From positions 7,130,001 to 7,194,000 of the forward strand of contig CM119371.1 in assembly GCA_051294905.1 (NCBI GenBank): 64,000 bases of DNA, read 5' to 3'. The notes below the pieces were generated by a model. The model worked only from the letters and a program-made list of their open reading frames with translations. It was not told where the DNA came from and ran no database searches. Numbering within the stretch: the stretch's first letter is position 1; each line of letters starts with the position of its first letter. This DNA comes from Botryllus schlosseri. Lineage: Eukaryota. This document shows, piece by piece, positions 9,001 through 30,257 of the stretch. The position numbers were made by a program, and so were the translations under genes.

Positions 9001-9228
9001 ATAATATCTCTTGCGTACCCCTATTTTATCGTCGTGATGCATTCCTATGTGAATGAATCTATATTGATCACACTGAAAGTCGTTTCCTCCTGAGTTACAT
9101 GGAGAGCGATACAAATAACCTTCTCCACCTTTGGGCTGTACTGCCGGTTTGTCGTAAATTATTTGAGGGTTTTCCAATATTTCTTTTGCTCTTGCAAACT
9201 TCAGAGATTTATTTCCAAGCTGGAGCAT
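6028..9228 (-). pseudogene. MULE transposase fused to SWIM, Ulp1/SENP-like (C48) protease and PHD finger; one in-frame TAA at 6490-6492
   Basis: DDE motifs (LSYDTTF, FVTDRE, CLNH, TNNISESMN); SWIM CTCASTTTCYH; Ulp1 HWILAV / VMDS / Q*LNTFDCG; C-terminal C4HC3 finger (C..IC...CVECRKWFHKSC...C....C). ORFs 6490-9228 and 6028-6489 are contiguous and in frame. Confidence 0.88.
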
Positions 9229-9924
9229 ACTTTCAGCTTAGAATTACTTTGACCGCTTGCTTCTCAGCGGAACTGGTCGGCATAATTGGATTTATTCGCT
9301 GTTGCGTGAATCGAAGAGCAAAACATAACTGCTCATACCTCGCTGACATGCTTATCTGGGTCATCTTGGAATAATGAATAACAATAACTTCGCATTTATT
9401 AGAAAGTGTAATTCAATCTTTACCAAATAAACAGCATCGCTTCACAGCATCACACACTGTAAACGAAAATGGTGTGTTTTTGCAATTTACTGCATAGCGC
9501 AGGGCGTATTTCAAGTCATCACACCTTTTGAGTACTAGAATTATTATTTGCACCCATCCCCGTGGGTGTGAATAAGCCTAATACACCCCACCATACCATC
9601 AAAAACAAACCTCAAGCATTGGCATTTCGGGTGAATTATCAGTGATTACACCTTTTTTCAGGCACTTATGAATTCAGAGGTGGTCAGTAACGAAGTACTC
9701 CTACTTTTTGAATTACTTGAAGTAGATTTTGCCCACTCACACTACTTTTTAAGTAGTTATGATTTTAGACTACTTCTACCTCTACTTGACAGTTTTCAGT
9801 TTTGTAGGCAAAAATAAGCCTAGAAAACCTGCTTACTTAATTACTTTGAACCACCACTCCTACTTCTACTTGAGTAGAAATTCCGGTGTTAGTTCTACTT
9901 CTACTTGAGTAGCGACGATGAGCG

Positions 9925-11275
9925 ATTTAGATTCCGTAGCCAGCAGATTATGTAATCGATGGTCAAATTTTCCGTCAAATTTGCCTCAAACTGGTATGGT
10001 TAAATTTTCCGCTGTTTCCGCTGCTTCGGCTGCACTCCGTTTTTCCGCTGATTTAGATTCCGCAGCGAGCTGATTATGTAAGTATCAAAGTCCGCTATGT
10101 AATCGATGGTCATATTTCCGTAATATTCGCCTCAAAATGGTATGGTTAAATTTTCCGCTGTTTCCGCTGCTTCGGCTGCACTCCGTTTTTCCGCTGATTT
10201 AGATTCCGTAGCCAGCAGATTATGTTAGTATCAAAGTCCGCTATGTAATCGATGGTCAAATTTTCCGTCATATTCGCCTCAAACTGGTATGGTTAAATTT
10301 TCCGCTGTTTCCGCTGCTTCGGCTACACTCCGTTTTCCGCTTATATGGATTCCGTAGCCAGCAGATTATGTCAGTATCAAAGCCCGCTATGTAATCGATG
10401 GTCAAATTTCCGTCAAATTTGCCTCAAACTGGTATGGTTAACTTTTCCGCTGTTTCCGCTGCTTCGGCTACACTCCGTTTTTCCGCTGATTTAGATTCCG
10501 CAGCGAGCTGATTATATAAGTATCAAAGTCCGCTATGTAATCGATGGTCATATTTCCGTCAAATTTGCCTCAAACTGGTATGGTTAACTTTTCCGCTGTT
10601 TCCGCTGCTTCGGCTGCACTCCGTTTTTCCGCTGATTTAGATTCCGTAGCCAGCAGATTATGTTAGTATCAAAGTCCGCTATGTAATCGATGGTCAAATT
10701 TTCCGTCATATTCGCCTCAAACTGGTATGGTTAAATTTTCCGCTGTTTCCGCTGCTTCGGCTACACTCCGTTTTTCCGCTGATTTAGATTCCGTAGCCAG
10801 CAGGTTATGTTAGTATCAAAGTCCGCTATGTAATCGATGGTCAAATTTTCCGTCATATTCGCCTCAAACTGGTATGGTTAAATTTTCCGCTGTTTCGGCT
10901 ACACTCCGTTTTCCCGCTGATTTAGATTCCGCAGCGAGCTGATTATGTCAGTATCAAAGTCCGCTATGTAATCGATGGTCATATTTCCGTAATATTCGCC
11001 TCAAAATGGTATGGTTAACTTTTCCGCTGTTTCCGCTGCTCAGGCTACACTCCGTTTTCCGCTGATTTGGATTCCGCAGCGAGCAGATTATGTCAGTATC
11101 AAAGTCCGCTATTTAATCGATGGTTAAGTTTTCCGCTATTTCCGTCTTTCCGTCTTTTAGGAATCGGCATTTTTTATTGTTTCCGCTGTTTCCGTTGTTT
11201 CCGCGTTTTAGGGTTCGTTTTCCGCTGTTTCCGCTGTTTCCGCTGTTTCCGCTTTTCCGTCTTTTAGGGATGCCC
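9925..11275. repeat. Right MULE TIR: about 9 tandem ~146-bp units plus terminal (TGTTTCCGC)n
   Basis: Unit starts (GATTTAGATTCCG) near 9925, 10050, 10196, 10341, 10487, 10634, 10780, 10919 and 11064. Confidence 0.88.
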
Positions 11276-11449
11276 AAAATAGGCTAACCTGCCCCCAGGC
11301 AATTGTAAATTCAAAACTTCTAAAATATAAAACGTGCATGTTAATTCAAATTCAGGCATATTGCAACAACTGATCATAAAGGAAGAGCAACAAGCATTTA
11401 ATTTACATCACATATAAGCAATCGTGGGTCAGATAAGTCCCAAAGATAC

Positions 11450-11966
11450 CAGTGATGAGCGGATAGTGCTTTTCGAGACTCCGAATCCCTCCGACAACTT
11501 TAGTGTCTGAGGAAAACTCCCTCCGACTCCGAAGAGCTCAATCCCAGACTCCGAGATACTCCGGTGAATGTCGTCAAGTATCCGAAACAGTGGCAAGCAT
11601 GGTACATGGTACACATGTTACAACATGGTACATGTGATAATATGGTTGGCCTCATAGTATTGCTTACTCTCCAGTCCCCAATTGCAGTGCAGATGGCTGA
11701 TTTTTATGCATCTGGCAATCATTTTTGCATGTTACCCGTCATATTACAACTTTACAAGGTGTCAACTGTCTGTGTTTTGGTTTGTAATCATAATCAATAG
11801 TGTATTCTGGTCAGAGCTATCCAAAGATATCGGAGACAAAAGTTACAATACTCCGAAATTCTCCGAAAAAATATCCGTAGTAAACTCCGGCTCCGCTCCG
11901 ACTGTCACAAAATTGGCAAAACTCCGCTCCGAATCCACTCCGACTCCGCTCCGATGCTCATCACTA
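11450..11966. mobile_element. hAT-type MITE upstream of the Merlin ORF
   Basis: TIR CAGTGATGAGC / GCTCATCACTA; 8-bp TSD AAAGATAC (11442-11449 and 11967-11974); subterminal CTCCGA repeats. Confidence 0.85.
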
Positions 11967-11985
11967 AAAGATACCCTTTGCAGGA

Positions 11986-12927
11986 ATGGCAAATCCTATC
12001 AAGATGAACATGCGATATTTGGCAAGAATGGGAATAATCACCGATTTGGATAAATGCATAGCATTCTTAAGAAAACACCGTTTACTGGCCTCCAGAATGG
12101 ACTGCCAAGGATGTGGAAGCATAATGACCGAGGAGAGGACTTCCAGTACAGCGGACGGTCTTCGCTGGCGATGCCACGACTCCAAATGCCGGACTACGGC
12201 AACCATACGTAAAAATTCATTTTTTGAGAAGAGTAATTTGGGGCTCATCCAGCTGGTTATACTAACGTACTATTGGGCTTCTCGTACTCCACAACGACGA
12301 ATCTCTTTCGAGGCTGAAATTTCAAAAAGAGCAATAGTAGACTGGGCCAATTTCTTGCGAGAAATATGCTCTGCAGACCTCATAGATAGGAAGGGGCCCA
12401 TCGGCGGACCGAATAGCGAAATTGCAGCGGATGAATCGGTGGTCGCTCGTAGAAAGGCAGGCAACCGACAAGGCCGTCCAGTGAAAGCGGTGTGGATCTA
12501 CGGGGCCGTAGATCTCGTCTCTAAAGAAGCGTTTGTAGAATTGGTCCCGGAGTCAGGCAGAACGACGGAAAATCTGAAAGAAATAACATTGCGCAATGTG
12601 AGAGCAGGAACAACCATCAGAACCGACGCATTTTCTTCATATCGTTCTCTCAGTGACTGGGGAGGGATGGGGTATAAGCACAGGGTGATAAACCACTCGT
12701 TACACTATGTAGACCCGGTGACGCTTTTTCATACGAATGACATTGAATCGTTCTGGCGTCAGGCTAAGGAGCTATTGAAGCTACAAAACGGCGTAAGTCG
12801 AAGATTGATTCCAAGTTATCTGGACCAATTCCTTTGGTCGAGGATGTACCCAAAAGAAGATCATTTTATGCGCATACTTGAAGCAATAGCGGCCAACCCA
12901 AAATACTATATGGGAAGTGAAGTTTGA
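11986..12927 (+). CDS. Merlin / IS1595 (ISXO2-like) DDE transposase, 313 aa, intact
   Basis: N-terminal Zn ribbon (CQGC...WRCHDSKC), helix region, DES...GR...VWIYGAVD, IRTDAFSSY, HRVINHS..YVDP...HTNDIESFW, YLDQFLW: the characteristic IS1595/Merlin motif order. Confidence 0.93.
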   Translation: MANPIKMNMRYLARMGIITDLDKCIAFLRKHRLLASRMDCQGCGSIMTEERTSSTADGLRWRCHDSKCRTTATIRKNSFFEKSNLGLIQLVILTYYWASRTPQRRISFEAEISKRAIVDWANFLREICSADLIDRKGPIGGPNSEIAADESVVARRKAGNRQGRPVKAVWIYGAVDLVSKEAFVELVPESGRTTENLKEITLRNVRAGTTIRTDAFSSYRSLSDWGGMGYKHRVINHSLHYVDPVTLFHTNDIESFWRQAKELLKLQNGVSRRLIPSYLDQFLWSRMYPKEDHFMRILEAIAANPKYYMGSEV

Positions 12928-13106
12928 AACCTCCCTGATGCCAGTCAACTTGCGTTTTACATCGATAATAGCACCTACCAAACATTGAGTTATTTGAAAA
13001 CAAAATACCAAAAATTTTTTATTATATTTTACAGAAATTGGAATATAATAATAGGAAGTCCTATTTTTAATTGAATGAATTTGCCAGCTGTACCTATCAG
13101 TGAAGA

Positions 13107-15512
13107 ATGGAATTCATTTCTGTTATTGGTAATCACTACATTAATGTTCTTTATGCAATTATTTTATTGTATATTTGGACTGAAGAGACGAAAGTTTACT
13201 GCAATATAGTTAACGTTTCGATCACAGAAATGCCCTCAGGATATGAAGACAGTTTCGTGAACGCATCAATCACGAATCTGCCCTCAGGCTATGAAGACCG
13301 TGCTGGGACGATAACCCAGGCCCAGTTCGGTCAGCTGCCTAGAGAATTACCAAAAGACTGGGCCAGATTGAATTCGTCGGCTTGGGAACATATATCACTT
13401 TCACAGTGTTGGCAAATTAAAAATGTAACTCATAATTTTACGAATCCGGGCCTCTTTTTTTCGTCGACCTTTGGATATGTCAAAGCCGAAAAGATCACAT
13501 TGCAAGAATACTTATATCCAACCGGGAAATACTGGACTAGCCTTGACCGGTTTGAACATACCTGTGTTTGTGGGCGCGAAAAGGCATACATCACTCCTGA
13601 TTTGAAGCTCAAGGCCCTGGAATCAGAAATAGTTTACGTTAGACCGACAGGCCACAATGTCAGATTGGCCTGGCGCTTTTCTGAAACATCAAGAAACATT
13701 CGAGATTGGAACCCGCTTGGTTTATATCAAATAGCAATTATGAAGTACAAATTGAAAGCCTTGAAAATGTTTGCTAGTTATTCAAGTATCAAAATCAGTT
13801 GTATAACTGAACAAGTTAGAACCGAAGAAATAATGAGACAGAGAAATATATACAATGATAGTTCTACCGACTTCGTGGACTGTGTCCGCTTATGGCAATT
13901 TTTACAGTGTACTATCTGTACGGTCAGAGGACTGGTAGTAAGTTTCGAGCCACACGCAAGCAAGATAATACTGCAAGAAGAAGATTCAACAAGGAACCTT
14001 CATGTCACATTGAACAAAGAAATGGATTTCGCACCTGGATTACGCAACTATCATCCTTCAGCCCCCGTATGGTTGAGAGACATGGCAGGCGATAAGCCTA
14101 CATTGCCAAAAAATATGATCTGGGTCTATCCTAGCTACATTAATAAGTACGGTTTCGAATATCGCGATGGGCCTACACCAACGAAAATAGCAGGAGCTCT
14201 GCCAATATACCTACAATACCCTTCCATGTTGAAGCAGGATCAATCGTGTATCAGAAGAATTCAAGGCAATAGGGCTATCTGCAATGATCCTGTTGGAGGT
14301 TTAAATATGAAATTGGCGTTTTGGGATCAAATTAAATACGATTCACAGTCAAATGAGAGAAGGTATCCCGGGAAACCATTTGTAATTTTAGGAGGGAAGA
14401 AGACGGGATTGGAACAAAGCGACTCCACGCTACCAGGAAGAACTAGAAAAAAGCGTCTTTTTTTTAGTTTGTTTATTTTATCGTTCTCTGTAATTTTAAC
14501 GTTGGCTGTAACGTCAAACCTTCAGGGAGTTCTGAACAAAAATATGGACCAGCTTACTTCTCAGATGAACGCACGATTCACAAAAATCGAAAATGATTTG
14601 AAGACAGTGGCAGACGGATTAAATGATCTCTCACTTATTGGAATTGCACGCGCCCAGAAACTTAATCAAGTCATTGTGACCAGTATGCGTCGAGATGCAG
14701 CAACTGAGGAAAGATTTAAAACTATTACAAATATGATTTGGACAAATCGTAATATGATAATTGCTCAAATAGACAGTTACTTGTCTACAATCCAAATGGT
14801 ACAAGAAATGACTCTTGCAGAATTAAGTTTGAATCAATTAGTTATGGAGCAATTGCAAAATCTAACTGCAAGACCCATATTCGATAAAAATAAGGCTTAC
14901 GCTGTACGAATAAAATCGGGAATTTTAAGCCTCCGAGAAATAGCTGAAAAAATCATTGAACTAAAAGATGAGTATGTGAACATTTCTCAAAACCAGGCTT
15001 TAGATTTACAAAATACACGAAGAGAGTTGCAGAAAATCGACAATCAAGCTGAAATCGAAATAACACGCTGGCAAGAGGATTTGAACAATAGTATTTTTGT
15101 GAATGCATCAGAGTTCTCAAACGGCAATGTTAGTTTCCACCATCTTGACCAAATAATTGGGGAGGAATTCTTTGACGACGTTGGAACCGCAGTCGAAACC
15201 TTGGCAAACGGGACTTCAAAAATTTTACAGAATGTCGCTAACGGCGCTAAAACTGTAATCACAGAAGGAGTACACGGAATAACTTCTATCCTAGGAGCAG
15301 GGACACAAGCTTTGTTTGGTGACATTGGAAGTATAGTCTTGCCCATAGTGGGAGTGATTGCAGCCATAGGCATATTGATTTGCATGATCAAAATCTATCC
15401 AGTAATATTCCCGAACAAAAAGAGGATCCATCGTGAAATTCAAGGAAGAAACAATAGATCTGAAATGACCACGTATACAGCAATTCTCGCTCCAACGTAC
15501 CATCAAAGATAA
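13107..15512 (+). CDS. Viral envelope-like class I fusion glycoprotein (Env1), 801 aa
   Basis: N-terminal hydrophobic signal; Cys-containing ectodomain with many N-x-S/T sequons; furin site RTRKKR (14439-14456) immediately followed by hydrophobic LFFSLFILSFSVILTLAV; long heptad-like helices; Gly-rich pre-TM; TM IVLPIVGVIAAIGILICMI; short tail with YxxPhi. Confidence 0.8.
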   Translation: MEFISVIGNHYINVLYAIILLYIWTEETKVYCNIVNVSITEMPSGYEDSFVNASITNLPSGYEDRAGTITQAQFGQLPRELPKDWARLNSSAWEHISLSQCWQIKNVTHNFTNPGLFFSSTFGYVKAEKITLQEYLYPTGKYWTSLDRFEHTCVCGREKAYITPDLKLKALESEIVYVRPTGHNVRLAWRFSETSRNIRDWNPLGLYQIAIMKYKLKALKMFASYSSIKISCITEQVRTEEIMRQRNIYNDSSTDFVDCVRLWQFLQCTICTVRGLVVSFEPHASKIILQEEDSTRNLHVTLNKEMDFAPGLRNYHPSAPVWLRDMAGDKPTLPKNMIWVYPSYINKYGFEYRDGPTPTKIAGALPIYLQYPSMLKQDQSCIRRIQGNRAICNDPVGGLNMKLAFWDQIKYDSQSNERRYPGKPFVILGGKKTGLEQSDSTLPGRTRKKRLFFSLFILSFSVILTLAVTSNLQGVLNKNMDQLTSQMNARFTKIENDLKTVADGLNDLSLIGIARAQKLNQVIVTSMRRDAATEERFKTITNMIWTNRNMIIAQIDSYLSTIQMVQEMTLAELSLNQLVMEQLQNLTARPIFDKNKAYAVRIKSGILSLREIAEKIIELKDEYVNISQNQALDLQNTRRELQKIDNQAEIEITRWQEDLNNSIFVNASEFSNGNVSFHHLDQIIGEEFFDDVGTAVETLANGTSKILQNVANGAKTVITEGVHGITSILGAGTQALFGDIGSIVLPIVGVIAAIGILICMIKIYPVIFPNKKRIHREIQGRNNRSEMTTYTAILAPTYHQR

Positions 15513-15615
15513 TATTTGGAAACAAAAGGTAAAATGAAATATTTCTATTAACTGATACCCCTACTATATTTAGATTTAAGCTTAAAGTGTATTGTTAACC
15601 GACAATCGTGAAATC

Positions 15616-18600
15616 ATGAAGATAAAGATCTTCCGGGAGTCGATAATTGGGATCATGTGGATTCTAATCAATTTGAGTCAAGGTAAAAAGGTATCTCTTA
15701 CTGAAATGTCACTAATAAAATTGCACGATTTAAATGTTTCACGTTGGATGCTGTATAATGAGAGTCAAGTTATATTACATGCCCCGTTACATAGGTTATT
15801 TGAACTAGATGCACCCACTACTTCTAATTATGGGCACATCGAAATGATTACAGGACATAGCAGTCAATTTGGACCAGTCAAAACCTTTGGTCAGACATTG
15901 CAAAATAATCTTGGGAGGAAGAATCAACATAACGTATATTGGGAGGATCCTTTAACCTTTGAGCAAACCTGTATTTGCCGAAGGAAGATTCACTATATTG
16001 AACCACCTCTGGCATATGCAAATTTGTATAGAAAGATCAGATACGTAAGAGCAGATAAATTTAATGCGCGTTTCATTTTTCGTTGGGCTGAAAATAATAT
16101 CACCTTACCAATATCAAATCCCCGAAATGCACACACTCCCGTAATGACAGTATACAAATATCTAATCATAAATTTGCTCATAAATTATCGAGTAGTGATT
16201 GCCAATTGTGTAAAAATATGGCATCCTGAGAAATTCGAAACCAGCATCTCAATGCGTAATTTCTATGTCTGTACAACTGGAGATCAAAGATTGACGAAAT
16301 GTTACGCTTGCCAATTTAAGGGAGAAAACCCAGTCATGAATATAGTGGATACTGGAATATTCATACAAGAACAAGATAGTACGATCAATGATTTTGTAAC
16401 AAGGAACGACACTGACAGTGCTTTAGATTCTAGCATACTATATGCCGCCTCAGAAAATAAATGGCCTTTAGAGTATTTTGACAGAGTGGCGTCAAATCGT
16501 ATATATTGGATTAGAGCTAGCTCGAAAATATCTACTGAACTTATATTAGAGGACGGTGACAACTGCTTTCGTGATGGACCAAATCTTAGACAAGCCGGAA
16601 GTATACCAATAAAAGAAACTACACCATCTATGATGGCAAATGACCCAAATTGCCATCGTCGTGTACTGGGAAAGACAAAATGTAATAAACCTATGGGTGG
16701 AGTTGAGGCCAAACTTATGCTTGGAAATCACATGACGTATGACCCTTCACTAAATAAACAACAATTTGTGAATGTTCATGGAGGTTTTTTGATGAAAAAC
16801 AAAGGATTTCGCATTCCCGAATCATTTGAACATAGTAATCAGACTTTCCTTTTGGTATGGAGACATGGAAATACGAATAGAATTGGCCAAATACTACGTG
16901 AAAGTTGGTTTCAAGCACGAGAAAGGGTAGTTACCATTTTCGCTAATATATCCAGACCAATTAACATGATAAGATCTAGATTACGAGCAATGATGTCTCG
17001 CGAACGAAATTTTCCAAGAACGATGAATATATTATCGAACAAAATCTCCAGACTAAAGAGGGGACTATTGCCAACAGAAGTATCACGATTAAACAAAGCA
17101 TTCAGTCAGATGACTGCAGCTATGATTCTATTGAGAGCGACTATGCGACAGATAGAACTGTTTGAAATAAGAATTTGTTATAAAGCTAGCTTTCAAAATG
17201 GAAGTTTAATTTATGTTCCTTTCGCCTATAAGGAAACTGTGCCCCGAAGCGATTCACTAACATCCAGCATACCAGAAACAGATATGACTACATTGACGAA
17301 TAGCGAAATTACACTATCTCGAATGACATCATCAGTTGTGACAAATATTACGGATAATATAGGAATTGGCGCATATACAGTGGTAGAGTCACCATTAAGG
17401 ACTAAGATTTTGACATCGTCTCTATCGACATCGCCTGATACAATATTGAAATCATCAAACGTTACTATTGGGAGAAATCAGACATATGATGTCACTAGGC
17501 CCGAGGCCCTACTATCACAAATACCAACACAGGTAACCTTGTCCGAATATTCAACTAATTCACCGACTACAAGAGAAACTGATCAGCACCGGCAAATGCT
17601 AACAGCAGCATCAGATACGACCATCTTTTTGCCAGAAGTTCAGCGAAATTCAAATTATTTCAATACCACAACACCATCAATAATACTTCCATATGAGGTA
17701 AGTGCACAAAGAGTAAGCATTCTCATTACAGGTATATTTAATACAACGACACAAGCAATGAAGAATACAGATATAATCACAAGGAATGCCACGTTCACCC
17801 GATCTACAACACATACAACACCGATGTCAATCATGATGGCCATTACTACATTAACAGAAGACAACTCAAGCTCAACTGCAAACTCCACAAACTACAAGGA
17901 AGACTCAATTAAATTGCCGCAAGCCGGTAAGTGGACTGTAACGACAAATGAAGATATATTGTTCAGACCAACGATAGAACCAAAGTCAAATTCGACAACT
18001 GAAACGCCAAATCCATTCTCACCCATATCAAACTTATTAAACACGTCGGAAGAATTACAACAAATTTCAACAACCCCAGTGGGAAAACGCAGCTCAGTTG
18101 CAGAAACCATTACCCAAGAAGATATGCGAGGTAACAACGTTTCAACACAAAATGACTCGAGTCATACAAACAGATTACAATCAAGTGCTCCAACGTTCAT
18201 AACAAAACATGCAAGTATAGTAGAAATTTCAAAAATGTCTCACAAGATTGTAATGAATAATTCTAACAGCTCAGTCAATGACAACATAAGTATTTTTGCC
18301 ACGCCTGATCCTAGTAGACATAGGGTTGGAAAAAGATCCTGGGAAAATACCACCATTTTGGCCAATAGCACGAATCAAAATCCAATTATGACGGAAGAAA
18401 TAACATTTAGGTCAACAAGCCAACCATTGATGTCAGTTAGAAGAGTTGAAATCGGACCCACGACTGATAGTAGAAGTACTAATTTCAGTGGACAGAGCCC
18501 CATGCACGTCACAAGAAGTAGTACTGAAGAAAAATTGAACACTAATCACAATACTACGTCTTTAGCATCATATACTACGCAAGCTACAACAGAAACTGGT

Positions 18601-19218
18601 GAAAAGATCAAACCAACTATGAGAAGTCGGGTAACCCACATGAATATTACTTGGGAAAATATCACGTTAGCACCAAATAGATCAAACTGGGACACCACTA
18701 ACTTAAATCTAAGTAATTATGAGACTACTATGAAGTATGAGTTGGGCCCTGAGCATACCAGAGATCAACAGTTGATTACCAAGAATATGCCTAAGGCGAC
18801 ATATTTAGCTTTTCAACCTAATGTAAATTCAAGCTGGATGGTATCGCCAAGTGATAATGAAGAAAAATTCAATTGGACTCAAGAACTTTACAAATTATCC
18901 GCCTTGGAGAGGAATTTTTCATTGGAAATAGATTCATACATCATCTTCAGAACTCATGTCAAGCGTGTCAGGGAACTTGCAAATGAAAATCTCTCTGGCA
19001 TTGTAAGCGCTGGAATCATTATAGCAATAATCACTGGAATAATGATATATCTAGTACGAAAATTCTGCAGTCAAAAGAAACAATACAATATGCGTGCTCA
19101 ACGTAGAATTGTAAAACGTAATGTGAGACACGAGTTGAAAAGGAAAATCCTAGAAGAATTGCAGAATAACTCAGAAATAATGGCATTAAATCATGAAATG
19201 AATGAATTAATCGCATAA
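15616..19218 (+). CDS. Type I membrane glycoprotein (Env2): Env1-paralogous head, mucin-like Ser/Thr stalk, TM anchor; 1200 aa from the ATG
   Basis: Signal peptide (IIGIMWILINLSQG); head motifs collinear with Env1 (FEQTCICRR vs FEHTCVCGR; QEQDST vs QEEDST; RDGP; CHRRVLG..CNKPMGG vs CIRRIQG..CNDPVGG); ~500 aa T/S/N-rich; TM GIVSAGIIIAIITGIMIYLV; basic tail. Confidence 0.78.
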   Translation: MKIKIFRESIIGIMWILINLSQGKKVSLTEMSLIKLHDLNVSRWMLYNESQVILHAPLHRLFELDAPTTSNYGHIEMITGHSSQFGPVKTFGQTLQNNLGRKNQHNVYWEDPLTFEQTCICRRKIHYIEPPLAYANLYRKIRYVRADKFNARFIFRWAENNITLPISNPRNAHTPVMTVYKYLIINLLINYRVVIANCVKIWHPEKFETSISMRNFYVCTTGDQRLTKCYACQFKGENPVMNIVDTGIFIQEQDSTINDFVTRNDTDSALDSSILYAASENKWPLEYFDRVASNRIYWIRASSKISTELILEDGDNCFRDGPNLRQAGSIPIKETTPSMMANDPNCHRRVLGKTKCNKPMGGVEAKLMLGNHMTYDPSLNKQQFVNVHGGFLMKNKGFRIPESFEHSNQTFLLVWRHGNTNRIGQILRESWFQARERVVTIFANISRPINMIRSRLRAMMSRERNFPRTMNILSNKISRLKRGLLPTEVSRLNKAFSQMTAAMILLRATMRQIELFEIRICYKASFQNGSLIYVPFAYKETVPRSDSLTSSIPETDMTTLTNSEITLSRMTSSVVTNITDNIGIGAYTVVESPLRTKILTSSLSTSPDTILKSSNVTIGRNQTYDVTRPEALLSQIPTQVTLSEYSTNSPTTRETDQHRQMLTAASDTTIFLPEVQRNSNYFNTTTPSIILPYEVSAQRVSILITGIFNTTTQAMKNTDIITRNATFTRSTTHTTPMSIMMAITTLTEDNSSSTANSTNYKEDSIKLPQAGKWTVTTNEDILFRPTIEPKSNSTTETPNPFSPISNLLNTSEELQQISTTPVGKRSSVAETITQEDMRGNNVSTQNDSSHTNRLQSSAPTFITKHASIVEISKMSHKIVMNNSNSSVNDNISIFATPDPSRHRVGKRSWENTTILANSTNQNPIMTEEITFRSTSQPLMSVRRVEIGPTTDSRSTNFSGQSPMHVTRSSTEEKLNTNHNTTSLASYTTQATTETGEKIKPTMRSRVTHMNITWENITLAPNRSNWDTTNLNLSNYETTMKYELGPEHTRDQQLITKNMPKATYLAFQPNVNSSWMVSPSDNEEKFNWTQELYKLSALERNFSLEIDSYIIFRTHVKRVRELANENLSGIVSAGIIIAIITGIMIYLVRKFCSQKKQYNMRAQRRIVKRNVRHELKRKILEELQNNSEIMALNHEMNELIA

Positions 19219-20038
19219 TGATTAATGTTTTCAGACTATTATTCACTGAAATATGAAGCATGAAAACTTGACTAACTATGTAATACTAGTGGAAACGGAC
19301 TGACACGCCCAAGGCTATGAAGTCGTGATAAGTTGTAAACAGGCTTATTGCTGTACTGTGGAAAATATGATTCCTTATTCCTGCAATGCAGTAAAAACCT
19401 TGCTAGCCCGGGGCTGTAACAAAACAAGTACTAAGACTACATTGGAAGCTTGACGTAAAAATGTGAAAGATACACTTACTTTCATATGTGAAACGTGATC
19501 TCAAGACCGTCGCATAAATACAATGTCTTTTGTAAAACTGATGATATATCCCAAAATAGGCAGTAGTCCATCACCTCTGCAATAAAGTAGATATATTTTC
19601 GAAAATGGAATGGCAATGACTGTATATTAACAAGAGATATACGGGCAAATTTTAGTGACGAGTCGTTAAAGCAGTATTCATTTCTCAAATACGATCCCAA
19701 ACCCTTACCTTTCCAGATTACCATTTCTTTTTTCAGGCAAGCGCTACATCAGATTGCTGTGAAATGACACAGTAACATTTACATACATTGGATCAAATGT
19801 AAATAATTATAAAAATCATTTAATATCTCATTTCTTGTTTCATTATACTGTAATTCATTCCTTTCGTTATATTTTGGTGAAAATATGTTGACATGAAGAA
19901 AATCACGACAACATGATTATAATTAAATAAATATACCTAAAAAATTCACAAAACCCTCAAAAACCGAAAAATATTTTGTTATTTAGTCTATACAGGTGAA
20001 TTTAATTTTGAAGCTTTCAATTTTGCTGCTAAATTGCA

Positions 20039-20670
20039 ATGATATCATTTTTGGGTGTTCTTATTGTTATAAAACACAAAAAAAAACATATATTACAAAA
20101 GAATCTTAAAATTCAGATTCAACAAAAAAAGGTATTCGCAAAAACATGTAGATTTAGATTTGTAACGATAGAAGATTCCAAAATTCTGTACATAAGGAAT
20201 ATTATTTCTGGACAGCACAGGCTGACAATTATGAAACCTTGTGAATATACTGAGCATCCAGGGCCCTAGATTATCGAAGACACCTCCTGGGTAAGTATGA
20301 TGTAAGTATATTTTACTGTTTTCTATCAAAGTTTCGAGACCATATTTAGTAGAAATATGGACAATCTCCTATAAACTGCGAAACCAGGGCAGGCTAATCC
20401 ATACGAAGCCGAGTAGAAAAAGATACATGCCATTGCGTAAAGCAATAGATAATTGCCCCTCTAGAACTAACAATACTGGCCCTTTATTTTATAACTAATA
20501 AAAAATACGACACAATTGGACCAAACATGAGTAGTTTATGCGATCTTCCAATTACGAGATAGGTAGTAAATGTATATAAATTCACGCATCACCATACTGT
20601 AGACACAATCCAGTCGTTAATGGAATGGATGTTGGGACACATTGTACAATTCTGGGATCAATTGTAGGTA
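20039..20670 (+). pseudogene. Possible decayed accessory ORF
   Basis: Protein-like reading (KTCRFRFVTIEDSKILYIRN...; HHHTVDTIQSLMEWMLGHIVQFWDQL) broken by several stops and a probable frameshift near 20425; no family recognised. Confidence 0.3.
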
Positions 20671-22255
20671 TGTTTTAATAAATTATAGGATTGTGAGAAG
20701 AGAGAATAACTCGGCACAGAATCAATAATATTCTGAAGTCGGAGGGCAGCATATTTCCTTTAGTAACCCTGTGAAAAGGAAGTAGAGCATTATGTTATGT
20801 TTTTTTTTGTACAATAATCAGTTATCAGTTTAACTCAATTTAAGAACAAGACCAAATGCTAATGAAATCAGAGTTTTCTATGGCTAATTATAACATAATT
20901 ACAAGTACCTGGTTCAATCAAAGTCCTTCATTGTGTAGTGAGAACTTGGATGCATGATTATGTTGAATTGGTCCTTAAGATTTCTTGAAAGATTGATTTG
21001 GCTGTTAGTACAAGGAAAATGGAAGTTCAAAACATTATTTACAAAATTTAACGTCTATCCTAGAAACAGGTTAATTTGTCACTTACTAAAAGTTTAAGCC
21101 TGGTTATTATTGAAGAATACTGCCGCCCCAAAAAATACCCAATAAATAAGGGAGTTAAGAACTACATATTTAAAATGAAGGTAACTACTGAACCCTATAA
21201 CTCAATCGGTATGGCTGAACACCAATAGCCATTACATCATGGAACAGGCCAAATTTGCTCAATTTCCTTTCAAATGAAGCTGTAAAGCACCCAACACTAT
21301 TGAAATGTTTCACTAGGCATCACAGAAATAGTGGAAAGCTTGACAAGTGAGTTTTCACAAAAATGTCTAAAGTGACATATTTTTTCTTTCAAGTAGGCAT
21401 AGAAATTGTCATGGAAAATTACTGGTACGATATAAAAAAATGAAGCACCAACAGATTATGAAATTCTGCTTTCTGAATGACAGATCGTGAGTGCAAACCA
21501 ACATATTTTGGAAGATAAAATCTCTAAAATATATAAACTGAGTAGAATTGACCTATGAAGTAATGTGCACACTACGTAATACAAGTGAAAACTAACCTTG
21601 TGTCGGATGATGCCTGGGCGATGTCTCGCGGTATTGTGCGGTGTCTCCTGGTACCTTCCGGTGCCGTGATATAATCTAAAATGACGGAAGTAATGTGAAA
21701 CTTATTATCAGATAAACTTCTCACGACATTTTGCAAAACAGGGCGTAGTCATCCAAAGAATGTAAAAATCTATATATACAAGCATAGATTTTTTTCTGAA
21801 TATTTCGAAATAAATATATACACCCACTCAAGATAGAACATTCATTCGGTCACTAGCATATTCTTATATCTGGAGGTCAGATACTCATGAATTATATTGA
21901 AGATAGAACAAGATAGTTTTTGTAATGACATATTACTAGACGGAATAGTACATGGATATATATACTTACCGATTGTTGAATTTAGGTGAAGTGATTGATA
22001 TAGGCTATTATAACTGAAAGAAAGTAAGTAGAGAGAGTTAATTATAAAAAAAAGGATAATAGAACGACAAGATCCAGGCCTTGCAAGTGACAATCATGTA
22101 TCGTTATGTTATATTGATGTTGTATCATATGTTATTTTACATAGTGTGTTATTGATTGCACAAAGTGAAGCTTTTACATATAGTAAAATGTTTGCTATTG
22201 ATTCTAGATTGTTTAATGTGAGATTGATTCATTGTAAACTTTCATTACAAAGAAT

Positions 22256-23167
22256 ATGGCAACTCCTTCAGATCTACCAGCAACATCACAATCTTCTGTC
22301 ATTATACTTGAAGATTGGGAGCCTGTACTACGGGAAACTGATTCCGATGATGATTTCCCTCTAGACAATGATTACAGAGTCCAGATTGAAATGGAATGTA
22401 GATGCAATACATTTTGTAATCTTTTTTTCTGCCGCGGACCTCTACTGAAAGGAAAGGGAAGATCGCGATTTTATGGCCTGAGTTTGACAACCTTGCTAAC
22501 AGGCCTTGTCAACAACATGCACAGATACGGTGGTGAATTGGTAGATAGACTGGCGTTCAGATTGAATTCACGAATCAGAGAATGGACTCAACAACGAGCT
22601 GTTTGTAACAGAAGAAACAAGCTCAATATAATCAACTACCAGTTCATTGTCGGTGGAATCGAAATGGATATCGACCATTATATAACACGATTTGCAAGAA
22701 AACACCTACTAAGACACGACATAATCCCATCTCTCAAAGGTGGATACAGCAAGAGGGATTGGAATGAGATGAACATTGATGTGTGGGAAAGAACTAATTG
22801 CCCAGTTTTTCTCGAGAGAGAGGAAGATATATTTCATGCGTTCTCGATTTGCGACGAAATATGGAGAAGATTGCCAACAGCCTTCCCAATGTTCAAGGGA
22901 TTAGAGTCGTCCTTGTGTGAACCCGTGAAAGACGTGAACTGGAAGAAAGCAGCTGTCGAGCAAATAAGAAGGGATGCCATTATATTCATCTACTATCCCA
23001 ACCTTATCATTGAATCGCTAGCAGCAGGCGACTGTTTTTACAATGTAGAAGAACTCCGACCGGAGGCGGAGAATGTGTACAAAAACAGGTACCTAATGCA
23101 TGTAAAGATTGGGAAACTAAGAACATTATTGATCCGATATGATGAGAAGAATAAGAATAAGGAATAA
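22256..23167 (+). CDS. Orphan 303-aa protein within the virus-like cassette
   Basis: ATG-initiated 912-bp intronless ORF in AT-rich surroundings; acidic N-terminus (ETDSDDDF) and Cys cluster CRCNTFCNLFFC; no family recognised. Confidence 0.7.
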   Translation: MATPSDLPATSQSSVIILEDWEPVLRETDSDDDFPLDNDYRVQIEMECRCNTFCNLFFCRGPLLKGKGRSRFYGLSLTTLLTGLVNNMHRYGGELVDRLAFRLNSRIREWTQQRAVCNRRNKLNIINYQFIVGGIEMDIDHYITRFARKHLLRHDIIPSLKGGYSKRDWNEMNIDVWERTNCPVFLEREEDIFHAFSICDEIWRRLPTAFPMFKGLESSLCEPVKDVNWKKAAVEQIRRDAIIFIYYPNLIIESLAAGDCFYNVEELRPEAENVYKNRYLMHVKIGKLRTLLIRYDEKNKNKE

Positions 23168-24903
23168 GGAGCTGATGTTGCTGAATAATCTGAGAACTGG
23201 AGAGTTGCTATATGAAACTGTTTATTTCTGGAGTTATCCATTTACCTGTGATCTGCTGAGTACTGCAATTATTGGTGTGAGTACACTCTTTATCTATGAC
23301 AAAACATTACTTTCCCCTGTTAAGATATCTTAAGCTGTCTGGTCCTAGGTATCTGATTGCAAAATACGGAAATATTTGCCGTTGATATCAGATTAAACAA
23401 AGCATAAATAACACCTTAATCACACTATATTATGGCCTCAGCATTAACAGAATAAACTAAATGATTAGATACATTAATCAATTCCTAACTGTCCTTTCTA
23501 CCGACTAACTGAAATCCCTGACTATTTGTCGCTAGACAAAGTTTTCGCCAAAAATCAATGTCATGGTTTATGAGTAACCACTATTGTCGCCATTGAGTAT
23601 TTCGAACAAGTGACGTATTTTGAATTAAAACAAAATCTGACATGGCCTTAGGCATTGCAGTCAAGGGCGTGAAAAATTCTTTAAAATTTAACTTAAGATG
23701 TGCTTTTCGTATTGGTGATTGCTGAATTATTATGTATAAAGTATAAGATGTTGTAACAAAAATGGACGTTACGTGTTATAACTGACAACACCACATATAT
23801 ATATGTCAGGATCCTTCGATCTAAAGGAGCGAAGTTACAAATTCGCTTTAAAATGGGAAATGTTTGCTCTGATAGGCGGTACATACGAATATTGAAAAAA
23901 AGCTTAATACAACTATATATTGATAATAGGGATTAAAGTTGCACAATACCCTATGAAAAAATAAAAACCAGAATTAATAGTACTGAGTTAGCACATTTAA
24001 CATCTGCAAGCCATGTACAAGGGACTACTTCTCCCAAATGTAAAATGTGTAATGATTGACGCGATACCTTTCGAAATTTTTCATAATGATACATTCGTAC
24101 CGCACTGAATCATTCACTTAAATGGCGCCAGTCAGAGAAACCGTTGCTATGGTTTTTGATAAACAACTGATATGTGCATTTCGTATAGTTTGACTGTATA
24201 TTGCATTTTGAAGATAATCTACATCTGAAATTGACTGACAGATGATTCAAATCGATACTAGAGCGTTATGAGTGTAATTTGGTTTATAAATTGTGCATGA
24301 TAGACGTGAATGGAAAAATTTTAATTATACCTTGAAGAATTTTATAAGTGCGAATCATTTATGATTGAATTTATTGTTAATTAGATCTGTATATCTGTTA
24401 AATGACGCAAAATTCATTGGAGTATTTGGTTGTATTAAGACAGGAAATGTGTTTTCTAGTAATATCTGAGCTCTGGACCGCATATGGTCGTTGTTGACTG
24501 GGGCAATGCGTGAAGATTGAACACCTGGAAGGTTACAGAAGAAAGAAAAGAACCTGGAATAAAGGTTTCAAGACTGATATCTACTGAAATTCATAGACTG
24601 TTAGAACCAGTGATATCACTGTCCCCTGAACATTCTATTCCACACAATTGGTGGCCAGTACGGATTCTTCAACTTCCATTTGTGATATCTCACATGCACT
24701 GCACAGAACAACGTTGCAGACTGATTTTCACAAGGTGTATTTTAGCAACTATCTCGACATTCATACTCATATGGACGGTGGTACAAGTATGCTGGTCTTC
24801 AAAAGGTGAATACCCATCTTCGAACTCTACGAATATTTCAACAGATGAGGGTGTTTATTTCAAATTATAAAGACAACAAAAATAGTGGGTCAATATTTTC
24901 ACA

Positions 24904-26037
24904 ATGAAGAAAATTTTTTCGAAAAAGCCGAAATCTACATCAAAGGATGCTCAAGCCTTACAAGAGAATCTTGCTCTTATGAAGGACACAGTCAAACGTC
25001 ACCAAGATGTTGAAATGAAACGAAGCCAGTTGAAATTGGCCGTAAAACAACAAGCAGAATTATTCAACGACATGAAAAATTTAATTCCAAAAACCACAAA
25101 AGAACTAGACTCGGCAAATCGTGACGTCAAGACCGCTCAAGCCGACCTATCAATGATAAAGCGCGCAACTGAAAAAGCATCTATGAAGATTGATTCTCAG
25201 ACGTTAAATGAAGTTCTTTCGGCGGAATTTGATTTAGGAAAAGCACATCAGAGAACAATAACCGGCTCCGGTCCAGCAACGTTATCGGCCGCCGTAGAAG
25301 TTATATCACCGCCTGCACCAAACTTGATTTCGATTAAACAACCAACTAAGCCACCAGCATATGCAGTAACCAGACAGCAATTGCAAACTGGCGAGAAGGG
25401 AAATAACAGTGATGTCTTTGCCCAAAAAATAGCCCCGCTTATACCGCAGAAATTGGTACCAACAGGCTCCAAACAGAAAAATACTTACAAGAATATATAC
25501 CCCCGATTAGATGGAGGTAGCGATACACAGTGTTATGTGACAGGTATCGAAGGTGTGGATACAATCCCTAATAACCTCATAATCCGGGGGTCATTTTTAC
25601 CCCAGCAAGACCCAGAATTCGAGCCGAGAATCCTGGCTTCACAGCGGACTCAGTTAATCCCACCGCCACTTTTCTCGCCAAATGTGATTCATGAACAAGG
25701 CCGTTTAGTAGTACCTTCCCCTGAGAGACGCGGGGTACCGTGGTACCTGCCGGAAGAGGCTCAAAATGACGATTCGGGGAGGCTCGATGATTCAGATGCT
25801 GCGGCATCTAATATCTCTGACCCACTGCCATACAGAAACAAGCGAATTATGCCGATGTCAGAGATGATCTCTGTAATGAAATCGGCTGGGTCAACACCGT
25901 TATTGCCTTGGTTGGAGGATAACCTCCGTATCCTGGATCATAAAAACGGCAATAGCCTTATCGATCGAGTCCTGGCTAACGCGATGCAGGCAAAATTGAT
26001 CGAAGCAGGCCGTCGGGAGGATGCAGAAATATTCGAT
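24904..26037 (+). CDS. Gag/matrix-like protein, truncated at 26037 by repeat DNA (ORF reads through to 26181)
   Basis: Basic amphipathic N-terminus (MKKIFSKKPK), ~100-aa coiled coil, Pro-rich middle with PPAY and YPRL late-domain motifs, then a helical capsid-like start (PLPYRNKRIMPMSEMISVMK...PWLEDNL). The last ~47 aa come from the minisatellite. Confidence 0.6.
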
Positions 26038-27500
26038 AGGGTTGGTGCTCTCACTTTACAAATAGGAAAAAAAGTTTGCAAATGGGCAAGGATTTACTTT
26101 GCAAATGGGCAAGAAAGTTTGCAAATGGGAAAGTATTTACTTTGCAAATGGCCAAGAAGTTTGCAAATGGGCAAGGACTGATTTCACTTTGCAAATGGCC
26201 AAGAACGGTCAAAAATCACGGCTTTTCATTGTATCGCATTTTTTGTGGTGTATTGAACTGATAAAATTGCTAATAAACCAATGATGATGGGTGGGGCCAT
26301 CAGCACCCTCAGTTGAGCATTGGAGCCAGATGGGTCCTCTCCCGCAAATTCGGCGAAATCCAAATCCAAATTAAAAAATCTAGATCTTAATCCAAAATTG
26401 ACGTCAGTTAGTTCGTGCTACCATGTGACCCCCATCGCCAGATTCACCACCACTAATTCGGATAAATCCAGATTTAGTTGGTGCTGTCAAAACTCACGAC
26501 ATGGTGGGGTCGTCAGCCCCCCAGTTGAGCAAGACCCAGATGAGGCCTCCCTCAACACATTCGGAGAAATCCAAATTCGAAAATCCAGATCTTCATCCAA
26601 AACTGGCGTGAGTTAGATCGTGCTGCCATGTGACCCCCGCATCCCCCATCACCACCACCAATTTTGATAAATCCAAATCCAGAATTAGTTGGTGCGGTCA
26701 GTCCCCCAGTCGAGCAAGACCCAGATGAGTCCGCCTCCCACATATTCGGCGAAATCCGATCGTGGTCAAAACTCACGACAATGTGGGGTCAGCGCCCCCC
26801 CCATACTTGGACACTACCCAAAAGAACCCTCATCCCCCAGAAATACGGCGACAAGGACACTCATCCCCCAGAAATACGGCGACCCATCGTCTATTTGACC
26901 AAATCCCGAACCCGAAAATCCATACTTTCATCAGAGTACACCCCTCCCGCACTTCTTTTCTCTTAAGTTGCAAATGGGCAGGAAATTTTTCAAATTCGAA
27001 GGATTTACTTTGCAAATGGGCAAGCATTTACTTTTCAAATGGGTAAGCGTTTACTCTTCAAATAGGCAAGGATTTATTTTCCAAATGGGCAAGAAAATTT
27101 GCAAATGGGCAAGGATTTACTTTGCAAATGCGGGCAAGAAAGTTTTCGAATGGGCAAGGATTTACTTTGCAAATGGGCAAGGATTTACTTTGCAAATGGG
27201 CACGGATTCACTTTGCAAATGGGCAAGAAAGTTTTCAAATGGGTAAGGATTTACTTTGCAAATGGGCAAGAAAGTTTACAAATGGGCAAGGATTTACTTT
27301 GCAAATGGGCAAGAAAGTTTGCAAATGGGCAAGGATTTACTTTGCAAATGGGCAAGGATTTACTTTGCAAATGGGCAAGGTCGGTGTCCGATTCCATAGA
27401 CAACTCCTAGTCGCTTCGACATCTTCCTTTCTTTTCATTGTATCGCATTTTTTGTAGTGTAGTGGATTGAACTGATAAAATTGCTAATAAACCAATGATG
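26038..27500 (+). repeat. Composite repeat copy A: TTTGCAAATGGGCAAG minisatellite, LINE-type 3' tail, GC-rich subrepeats
   Basis: Starts AGGGTTGGTGCTC; alternating 20/23-bp units; tail ...ATTGAACTGATAAAATTGCTAATAAACCAATGATG at ~26250-26290 and ~27465-27500; reverse complement at 37742-38967. Confidence 0.85.
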
Positions 27501-27503
27501 AAG

Positions 27504-28010
27504 TCTGTTCTGCAAATTGTGAATTCAAATACCGGTGAAAAATTTTCAGACCCTGCGATCGTCGCGAATCACTTCAATGAATATTTTTGTAACGTAGGCT
27601 AGGTCCTAATATTGTCTCTTCTCTTGCGAAACCTGCGTCAGCCAGGCCGGAGGTAAGATCGACATCTCAGTCTGTTATGCTCGATCCTGCCAATCACGCC
27701 GAAGTAGAAGTAGCCATCCACAAACTGAAATCCAACAAGGCCGTCGGCAATGATCAAGTCCTATTTTTTAAACTTCATGATAGAAAGCGGTGTCTATCCC
27801 AGCTCTGAAAACAGTCAGAGTGGTACCAATACACAAAGCTGGGGTTGGAACTAATGTCACTAACTATACAGAGTACAGACCGATATCTGTTCTTCCGTGT
27901 ATTGGGATTGTCTTCGAAAAGCTGCTCCTGTCTCGCCTATCTTTCTTCAATACCTCGCCAAAATGTCTATAATTTCCCCGCATCAATTTCGATTCCGCAT
28001 TAAACACCAA
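27504..28010 (+). pseudogene. Degenerate LINE (CR1/L2-group) ORF2 fragment upstream of the RT core
   Basis: Translates as DPAIVANHFNEYFCNVG*, EVEVAIHKLKSNKAVGND, VVPIHKAG, YRPISVLP, FEKLLLSRL, with stops and frameshifts. Confidence 0.85.
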
Positions 28011-28014
28011 ACCT

Positions 28015-28215
28015 CACATCATCATCATCATCATCTAATGGTTTATTAGCAATTTTATCAGTTCAATACACCACACAATATGCGATACAATGAAAAGACA
28101 GGAAGAAGTCCAAGCGACTTGGAGTAGGCTAGTCTATGGAATCAGACACCCGCCTTAGCCTAGGAGATGTAAAGAGGAGGCATGCACAGTTGCACAGAAT
28201 GCACACTGAATGAAA
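28015..28215 (-). repeat. LINE/SINE-type 3' tail ending in (GAT)n
   Basis: Reverse complement of the tail inside repeat A, ending in a longer (GAT)n run. Confidence 0.7.
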
Positions 28216-28337
28216 GTAAAGATCTAGGGATGGTGTGAACTTCTGAAAGGTTCAGGTTCGTGTGAACGCGAACCGAAAGGTTCTGTGTGAACGCGAACGT
28301 GAACCTCACGACGTCACGTGACGTCATATTGCTAATT

Positions 28338-28823
28338 CCAGCCCTATATTTGAATGAATGTGACAGCCTTTATAGTCTTGTAGAATTTTCGGTCAACCTA
28401 GAAAAAATTCTTATAAAGACGTATTATATACGGTTGGAAAGATAATTTTATCAGCTTTTCAATGTTGGGTTTTGTCACTTTTTTACCTTGGGGAAGAAAA
28501 GTTATGACCAAAAACGTGCCAGGGGGTAAAGCACTATTTTGCCTAACATTAAAATACAATTACAAGCTAAAACGCGATATCCAGCCCTATATTTGAATGA
28601 ATGTGACAGCCTTTATAGTCTTGTAGAATTTTCGGTCAACCTAGAAAAAATTCTTATAAAGACGTATTATATACGGTTGGAAAGATAATTTTATCAGCTT
28701 TTCAATGTTGGGTTTTGTCACTTTTTTACCTTGGGGAAGAAAAGTTATGACCAAAAACGTGCCAGGGGGTAAAGCACTATTTTGCCTAACATTAAAATAC
28801 AATTACAAGCTAAAACGCGATAT
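28338..28823. repeat. Perfect 2 x 243-bp tandem duplication
   Basis: CCAGCCCTATATTTG...AAAACGCGATAT at 28338-28580 and 28581-28823, with no differences seen. Confidence 0.9.
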
Positions 28824-30257
28824 CTTCGTAACATAATACAACACCATAAATTGGAATATCACTCTCAGTAAAGCAAACTAACAATCGAACAGCAAAAAAA
28901 AATGAAAAATAACTTTATTAAGAGGTATTTATGATACGTTAAGGGGTCAAAAGTTGACCGAGACGGAGATAACACTGGTAAAATTTCGAAAAAAATGATC
29001 GTCAAAATGAGCGTCAACCCCATGGACCCCCCTCGAAGTTTTTGTTCAAATATAGCTCAATTATCGTACAATCGTCATCTGTCTTGTGCAAATGATAACT
29101 GTAGGCTAGTGGTAAACAGCAACAAAATGACTTTTCTTTAAAATAACAGCATTCTATTTATGTAGAAATTGGGTTGACTTTTATTATTTCAAAGCTAATT
29201 ATTCAACTGCATTTTTTGAAATACGTGGTCGTGTCTTTATAATCTGCGCCTTCGATTTCATATCAATAAGTGCTGAAAATCCATTTAGACAAGGAAAGGT
29301 GGTGGCGAATGTAATAACAAGGCATAACGCTTTCGACGACACATTTGGGTATGATCGCAAAAATGATGACACCAAAATTGACTAACAAATTTTTTTATTG
29401 AACATATAACATCAAGCCGGTTCAAGCAGCTCATCTTGAAGTTATTAGAGAAATGGTTATGTAGGCCTATATCACAGGAGAAAACGGATTTTTGCGAACA
29501 TTTCGAAGTCTCCGTGATTGACTTTACGTATCCAACCATTTATTTTTTACACAATGCCCAGCAAAACACCTCTATACGCAGCCAAATATTTGTATCAGTG
29601 GGCTATTGACAATTTCGCAACTAAAATGAGTCCACACAGCATGAGGATATTCAATCTCAGACGGCCATTCTGTTTATGTGAGATCTACTGTAATGAAGTA
29701 AAACTGCCTCGTGATTTCCGTAATTTGAAAAATATAAATTAGGCTATCAATTATTTTGTAAATTCGCCTCGCTTCGCGGACCCCCAGTTGAGAACTACTG
29801 AACTAGAGTTTGTAGAAGTGCTACTCAAGTAGCACAAGTAACTCCCTATGTTTTCTACTAAATTAACAGTATAATTAGCAATTTTTGTGAAACGTGAAAA
29901 CTACTTCAAGTAGCAGAAAATCTAAGTATATGTGGTCGGGGAAAGGGTGGTCGCATATACTTTCGACATTTCGTCGGAGGTGGCTACATACGAAATCGCA
30001 ACATGTATCTTCTCGGGTAACGCAAAATGTTTATAATGACACAATACTCATTGGTAGAATATTTGAAAATATATTCAGTTACCGCGCTTTAAGGGTTGTT
30101 AAGGCTACTACATTTATTAATCATATGCAGCCAACCTCGTCGCGGAGCGGAACAGGAATACATTCGTGTTAAAATTAATAACTGGGTGCAGTACCAAATT
30201 CAATGTGGGCAGATATCTCCATGACATTCCCAGTTGATTTACTAGTCACACAAAGCA

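Follow-up and report, generated by a model that had tools for sequence, protein, structure and literature searches.

A multi-copy element in Botryllus schlosseri that joins a Merlin/IS1595 transposase to gag, pol and envelope-like genes

A 64,000-nucleotide stretch of the Botryllus schlosseri genome (assembly GCA_051294905.1, contig CM119371.1, positions 7,130,001 to 7,194,000 of the forward strand; hereafter the window) carries a truncated copy of a large mobile element in which a Merlin/IS1595-type DDE transposase is combined with envelope-like genes, gag and, in fuller copies elsewhere in the genome, a reverse transcriptase (RT). In window coordinates, with all parts on the plus strand, the element opens with a left terminus beginning GGATC and the first part of a 5' leader (2670–2818); alignment with close copies on C3, C9 and C10, which have different flanks, also sets in at 2670, and the right-end partner of the 8-bp left flank (2662–2669) is lost from this copy. 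The second part of the leader (11276–11450; 92–97% identity to close copies) is followed by the transposase gene (11986–12927; 313 amino acids; PF12762 DDE_Tnp_IS1595, E 2e-14), env1 (13107–15512; 801 amino acids), env2 (15616–19218; 1200 amino acids), ORF303 (22256–23167; 303 amino acids), a putative primer-binding site of 15 nt complementary to the 3' end of tRNA-Ile(AAT) plus CCA (24649–24663), which is internal and lies 240 bp 5' of gag, and the N-terminal part of gag (24904–26031). Pfam gave no significant match to env1, env2 or the gag part, and none to ORF303, an orphan accessory gene of the window subfamily that occurs at six loci in the genome, every one in close copies at 88–100% identity. 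Homology to fuller copies stops at about 26031, where the gag frame runs on to 26181 into an inserted repeat, and beyond the unrelated inverted-repeat element that truncates the copy (26038–38967, without a target duplication) the rest of the element is absent, such that about half of gag, the whole of pol and the right end have been lost.

The five plus-strand open reading frames (ORFs) described in the initial annotation are all present in the order claimed, with gaps of 179 and 103 bp between the first three. Its statement that no RT is encoded holds for the window copy, in which blastn and tblastn found no match to the RT or RNase H of the element and near which the genome search placed no pol match, but not for the element itself, as fuller copies encode RT; these copies also hold a complete gag and pol, which bears out its guess that replication genes were lost at the 26038 breakpoint. 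It was likewise right that no terminus closes the transposase before env1, the left end lying instead at 2670, outside the range it considered, with a Mutator-like element and a miniature inverted-repeat transposable element (MITE) nested between that end and the transposase.

Linkage between the transposase and the envelope-like genes recurs across the genome. The 495-Mb assembly that holds the window was searched with env1, transposase, ORF303, gag, pol and env2 as queries; locus counts are lower bounds, since only the best candidates were scored. The linkage map took in 55 env1 loci (from 97 rows, the remainder being second pieces of those loci). Of 130 transposase rows it kept 102, after 27 weak partial ones had been set aside and two pieces combined; of 144 gag rows, 107, without second pieces; and of 65 pol rows, 64, two having been joined. 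On this map an IS1595/Merlin transposase lies less than 5 kb upstream of env1 on the same strand at 54/55 loci, among which env1 identity ranges from 30 to 95%, and all seven close transposase copies run on into env1, one of them across an insertion. Copies number in the dozens and are dispersed singly. Each unit carries one or two Merlin/IS1595 transposases, two envelope-like genes, gag and pol, in fuller copies in the order transposase-env1-env2-(cargo)-gag-pol; the commonest orders, with 19 clusters each, are transposase-env1-gag-pol and transposase-env1-second transposase-gag-pol, and a permuted order, gag-pol-transposase-env, occurs at seven loci, with pol 135–147 bp before transposase-env1. 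The DDE_Tnp_IS1595 domain with its DDE triad places the enzyme in Merlin/IS1595; D149, D214, E254 and an N-terminal CxxC...CxxxxC motif are invariant in 18/18 aligned copies, all of them element-linked.

The termini, fixed by comparing copies, enclose the whole cassette. In all nine copies tested at both ends (17.8–40.0 kb, representing four subfamilies) the element starts with GG, ends with CC and is flanked by an exact 8-bp duplication that differs from site to site; the terminal inverted repeats are imperfect, with 14–18 of the first 24 bases pairing. Merlin elements have GG ends and 8–9-bp duplications, and highly imperfect repeats are reported for some (PMC8101967). Inverted repeats of 24 bp or more would be typical of the superfamily. 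No long terminal repeat (LTR), split repeat or internal complement was found among the compared parts of subfamily A, the inter-ORF stretches of large copies having been read in part for split and inverted repeats, and comparisons of left with right ends in four subfamilies, which might have exposed degenerate LTR remnants, were mostly at chance level, with weak direct similarity (z 3.0) in one of two subfamily-A comparisons. In the permuted subfamily a right-end motif follows env2 at six loci among the matches listed (motif positions were taken from 100 of 202 matches) and is homologous to other right ends (z 5.6–11.4); a candidate left end 44 kb from the right end was rejected as unlike known left ends.

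Taken as a whole, the cassette is almost certainly one mobile unit inserted by its Merlin enzyme. The initial annotation had asked whether the transposase-env linkage recurs at independent loci, and had looked to fuller copies for shared termini, a target duplication and pol, all of which were found. Envelope blocks that lack the transposase and carry LTRs with a normal gag-pol, which it named as a possible refutation, did not emerge from the map, and neither did transposase inverted repeats closing before 13107. Its proposal of an element that uses an IS1595-type transposase as its integrase and travels in enveloped particles thus stands as regards a single mobile cassette with Merlin marks; the particles are still a prediction from sequence, and that the element is reverse-transcribing is new.

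The env1 gene encodes a signal peptide, an RKKR site at 447, a hydrophobic peptide at 451, long helices and a membrane anchor at 743, a layout resembling that of class I fusion proteins, and the basic cleavage site, hydrophobic peptide, helices and anchor are kept in 14 aligned copies at 30–95% identity. Its structural model is poor (predicted local distance difference test score 44), its PDB matches are generic coiled coils, and BFVD yielded nothing with an E of at most 0.001; in the Atlas, leads to class I fusion proteins score below 0.9, and the one database homologue, P0232, shares 49% identity. An env1 profile matches residues 28–384 of env2 (E 8e-32), the N-terminal part of which is paralogous to the env1 surface subunit and is followed by a Ser/Thr-rich stalk and a membrane anchor; with 36 N-glycan sequons and 31% Ser+Thr, this mucin-like protein may act in attachment. 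Together the two genes suggest that the element forms enveloped particles.

The part missing from the window is supplied by fuller copies. In three close copies gag encodes about 820 amino acids, including a CX2CX4HX4C knuckle, and the pol frame after it spans 1067 codons, interrupted in the C16 copy by a single stop. Pol comprises a protease (DSG motif), RT (E 3e-22), RNase H and a C-terminal Tpt1/KptA domain (E 1.7e-8), and lacks an integrase. Best PDB matches of RT-RNase H are Ty3 (E 4e-56) and 8r0s (E 1e-54); the protease is identified by its DSG motif in the copies of this genome and is matched by Pfam RVP in the relative P0025; and the Tpt1/KptA domain aligns to PDB 9ld4 (E 1e-10) with the RH, GR and RQY motifs, which we take to be catalytic, retained. 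None of the 150 best rve integrase matches scored, out of 1389 candidates, lies within 5 kb of the 64 pol loci, and at 32/64 of these loci the right-end motif, among the matches listed, is only 226–285 bp 3' of the pol match, too short a distance to accommodate an integrase. In 3/3 copies gag shares an A-rich run (L061 2690–2708) with pol, which is read in another frame; a ribosomal frameshift is the likely explanation. With a weak model of gag from a fuller copy, C-terminal capsid domains of retroelements made up six of the top seven and 20 of 50 fold matches (best Z 5.9, root-mean-square deviation 3.2, 86 residues aligned); Atlas leads pointed to Retrotrans_gag (0.92–0.93), and Foldseek returned no match for the gag model.

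Public assemblies contain relatives of pol at 35–46% identity, and some of these fall into clusters that number 31 and 215 members. Among 12 close relatives scanned (P0090 and L074 are the same protein and are counted once), none has rve and nine have KptA, which is unmatched in P0087, P0090/L074 and P0098; the domain is therefore dispensable in the clade. A search among longer proteins gave only distant rve-bearing polyproteins, a metagenome scan gave nothing with P0024 and one close relative in the best 80 of 398 matches with an alignment, and viral contigs yielded distant RTs only (19 loci). A relative on the 13.9-kb metagenome contig L074 has the order gag-pol-env, with a pol that lacks integrase and an env homologue (E 2e-15). 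In a FastTree analysis of RT-RNase H (107 rows) the group forms one clade with support 97, as it does in a quick IQ-TREE analysis (54 rows, rooted on the long BEL branch), where it is sister to the Gypsy-like, caulimovirus-like and retrovirus-like rows jointly (support 99); the two sampled caulimovirus-like contigs group elsewhere. Both are fast trees without bootstraps or named Troyka or DIRS rows, in which viral labels were read from size and grouping.

Two further features of the relatives were seen. In P0098 and P0233 the place expected for an integrase is taken by a dUTPase that follows RNase H or by an AP-endonuclease-like domain that follows KptA. On L074 a perfect 27-bp inverted repeat (1713–1816) stands directly 5' of a candidate primer site at about 1846, presumably for tRNA-Met, and L189 has what we take to be a tRNA-Thr-like site.

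Several lines of evidence indicate that the RT has very probably been used in the spread of the element. Ratios of nonsynonymous to synonymous substitution (dN/dS) among close copies are 0.09–0.21 for the transposase, 0.13–0.22 for env1, 0.19–0.24 for the N-terminal part of env2, 0.14–0.15 for gag and 0.11–0.16 for pol, and all five tested genes are under purifying selection. The primer site is the sole match in the window (0/100 shuffles) and is 15–17 nt long, CCA included, in 6/6 inspected copies of three groups, being common to subfamilies whose pol is only about 52% identical. Its 12-base core has 140 genomic matches versus 14 for a reversed control, some of them tRNA genes (3/3 checked; ARAGORN called tRNA-Ile(AAT) genes in 3/3 genomic loci examined), and among the matches listed it lies 239–336 bp 5' of 41/83 gag matches and of 26/45 gag matches with downstream pol. 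A purine tract of 21–25 nt follows the pol stop in 3/3 close copies, in the C12 copy 469 bp from the right end. Since the primer site is internal before gag and the purine tract comes after pol, the DNA ends fall between the minus- and plus-strand priming sites, where an LTR would be. Finally, three copies change nearest neighbour along gag-pol, with 404 runs versus a shuffled mean of 520 (0/2000 shuffles as low), a mosaicism that would fit template switching.

These same observations bear on the possibility that the unit is a giant Merlin DNA transposon moving by cut-and-paste only, with gag-pol-env either carried as cargo, as in Teratorn, or replicating apart from transposition. Such a transposon would explain the Merlin-type ends and 8-bp duplications (PMC8101967), the cargo genes of large subfamilies and the existence of 12–13 kb gag-only derivatives with the same end motifs and no scored pol. 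It would not be expected to keep gag, RT-RNase H-KptA and both env genes under purifying selection even among close copies, to share a primer site between subfamilies so diverged in pol, or to exist as recombinant mosaics, and we consider it unlikely.

Our preferred reading, which we regard as probable, is that the element replicates like a caulimovirus via a DNA circle and integrates like a transposon. The termini would be joined into a DNA circle, on which the primer site is followed by gag, pol and the purine tract, then by the right and left ends, the transposase, env1, env2 and cargo, and so back to the primer site. A promoter 5' of the primer site would then give an RNA slightly longer than the genome that runs through gag, pol, the joined ends, the transposase and env; Gag would package this RNA, tRNA-Ile-primed RT would copy it back to a circle, and the transposase would cut the circle at the joined ends and insert it, while entry of particles into new cells would fall to env1 and env2. 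The Tpt1/KptA domain probably, though this is speculative, processes or ADP-ribosylates nucleic-acid ends. We infer the circle because the whole element fits on an RNA whose 5' end lies close to the primer site only if the ends have first been joined. Transcription of the caulimovirus circle gives an RNA with terminal redundancy, which is turned back into DNA by means of a tRNA primer and purine tracts (PMC7660458), and the bacterial IS1595-family element ISApl4 is reported to give a circular form, detected by inverse PCR (PMC12561309). The permuted subfamily would also fit a circle, its right end after env2 being homologous to the right ends that elsewhere follow pol.

A number of points count against this model. 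For the permuted subfamily, neither duplication-plus-GG patterns nor homology revealed the left end and its duplication, and the permuted order could stem from a tandem pair. An RNA genome of 40 kb is very large for a reverse-transcribing element. The exact primer motif is missing before 19/45 gag-pol loci, and no primer site was identified in 3/3 stretches from subfamilies without it; the purine tract is just 13 nt long in subfamily E, and in the tested ends of A2, B and C none reaches the threshold; and the mosaicism could instead come from gene conversion. Two raw RNA runs, of which about 6% and 3% of reads were sampled against 7.2 kb of element plus flank, gave 57 and 119 reads at minimal depth, mostly on host flank, with no joined-end read among those listed at this very low depth (105 loose-end rows fall outside that list). 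The run index named no RNA holder, a result that carries no weight in either direction. L074, moreover, shows no transposase, no LTR and no GG...CC pair with a 7–9-bp duplication on its 13.9 kb, so that the transposase link is shown in the window genome alone.

A linear route, in which the transposase acts on DNA with free ends that is made via strand transfers that leave no trace in the sequence, or from RNA of head-to-tail tandem proviruses, would draw on the possible origin of the permuted order in a tandem pair and on the weak left-right similarity noted for subfamily A. We hold it to be rather improbable, given that no repeat fit for strand transfer was found and that copies are dispersed singly, each with its own duplication where tested. 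Doubtful too, and ranked just below it, is a circle made from RNA without excision of a provirus, in which a terminus-to-terminus RNA would be ligated, Tpt1/KptA would remove the 2'-phosphate and RT, starting at the internal primer site, would cross the joint to yield the same DNA circle: the retained motifs of Tpt1/KptA and its place at the end of pol, here and in most scanned relatives, speak for such a role, but base-exact RNA ends would be required, of which the shallow RNA reads gave no evidence, and three relatives do without a recognisable KptA. The idea that a free Merlin landed by chance next to a decayed retroviral block, for which one could cite the nested insertions that fill the window and the 12/102 mapped transposase matches without linked env, gag or pol (124–192 bits, versus at least 205 for full-length linked copies), is refuted by the linkage at 54/55 loci across widely diverged env1 and by the duplications that enclose the whole cassette in 9/9 copies.

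With the preferred circular cycle in mind, the element can be set beside known systems. It resembles Merlin/IS1595 in its DDE_Tnp_IS1595 domain, 5'-GG ends, imperfect inverted repeats and 8-bp duplication (PMC8101967), but rather than a single transposase it holds gag, pol, env, a primer site, cargo and often two transposases in 18–40 kb; the words "reverse transcriptase" occur nowhere in the main text of that paper. With Caulimoviridae it shares a protease-RT-RNase H without integrase, a tRNA primer site, purine tracts and a proposed circular cycle (PMC7660458), and it departs from them in its animal host, envelope-like genes, dedicated integration enzyme with target duplication and tRNA-Ile primer; membership fails on the separate RT clade and the presence of env genes and a transposase. 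Like DIRS, PAT, Ngaro, VIPER and TATE elements it joins a virus-like RT to an integration enzyme that is not an integrase (PMC12440569). Unlike the DIRS group, which has a tyrosine recombinase and no protease, it has a DDE transposase, a protease motif, a tRNA primer site, env and 8-bp duplications, and no split repeats were found, so it does not belong there.

Teratorn offers a parallel in that a virus-like gene set is bounded by the ends of the cut-and-paste transposon that inserts it (PMC10175614); there, however, piggyBac is combined with a DNA herpesvirus, whereas here Merlin is combined with a reverse-transcribing element whose LTRs are replaced by transposon ends. Troyka is similar in its tree position outside Gypsy, caulimoviruses and retroviruses and in a Gypsy-like RNase H without tether domain (PMC12440569), but has LTRs, CG...CG ends, 3-bp duplications, an integrase, a CX2CX8-10HX4C knuckle and no env, and the element differs in each, so identity with Troyka was rejected. 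Env-bearing Metaviridae (errantiviruses) and Retroviridae likewise have a gag with CCHC knuckle and capsid (the latter putative in the element), a pol overlapping gag out of frame, a primer site, a purine tract and an envelope protein that is cleaved, as predicted for env1; in contrast to them the element has no LTR, no rve, an 8-bp duplication, env usually 5' of gag, a mucin-like second env and a Tpt1/KptA domain ending pol. It carries the retropepsin, RT and RNase H of Ortervirales, with tRNA priming at the sequence level, but cannot be placed in Metaviridae, Retroviridae, Belpaoviridae or Troyka, having no LTR and no rve integrase with a 3–6-bp duplication.

No published description of this layout was found in the full-text literature, a search to which Repbase, most subscription journals and paper supplements (e.g. 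Troyka Data S1) were external, and the multi-copy element under selection is apparently undescribed. We lean slightly towards viewing it as a new family-level lineage of enveloped reverse-transcribing animal viruses of up to about 40 kb, with accessory genes (IAP-type BIR, leucine-rich repeat (LRR)), which dropped LTRs and integrase, adopted a caulimovirus-like circle, captured a Merlin transposase and has relatives in other assemblies. In that case a pararetrovirus-like agent of animals would have recovered the capacity to integrate by way of a DNA transposon. Described virus-like retroelements use rve with LTRs, a tyrosine recombinase (DIRS) or no dedicated integration (caulimoviruses, hepadnaviruses) (PMC12440569); the element suggests a fourth route, makes the boundary between retrotransposons and DNA transposons less sharp, and may offer a natural case for gain or exchange of integrase in Ortervirales and for eukaryotic Merlin enzymes acting on end-joined circles. 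It also shows that a Tpt1/KptA domain can form part of an RT polyprotein. Automated annotation that relies on finding LTRs or short transposons would break such elements into unrelated pieces.

Copies elsewhere in the genome vary in content. Around the second transposase of the 40-kb subfamily (L045–L060), the cargo comprises an LRR protein, two orphan ORFs and an IAP-type BIR domain (E 4e-16). Derivatives of 12–13 kb (e.g. G000:C1:19042164-19054584 and C2:15288067-15301718) share the end motifs and primer site and have a gag frame of about 620 amino acids with too little room for pol; they are probably non-autonomous. Gag relatives with frames of about 954–988 amino acids (e.g. G000:C11:1301146 and C1:16839530), with no scored pol, env or transposase nearby, are possibly further subfamilies.

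The remaining features of the window are foreign to the cassette. Nested in the leader on the minus strand, the Mutator-like element (2819–11275; Pfam MULE and Ulp1) encodes a 912-amino-acid transposase fused to a Ulp1 protease, has 146-bp repeats as arms and is flanked by a 9-bp duplication (2810–2818 and 11276–11284); it is missing from close copies, as is the MITE (11451–11967), which has short inverted ends and an 8-bp duplication. The element at 26038–38967 has 23/43-bp repeats and contains an open BEL/Pao-type ORF of 1989 amino acids (31303–37272) between direct repeats at 30729 and 37331. Three similar intronless ORFs, BTB-kelch-like by eye, lie at 556–2196, 42148–43785 and 62023–63651.

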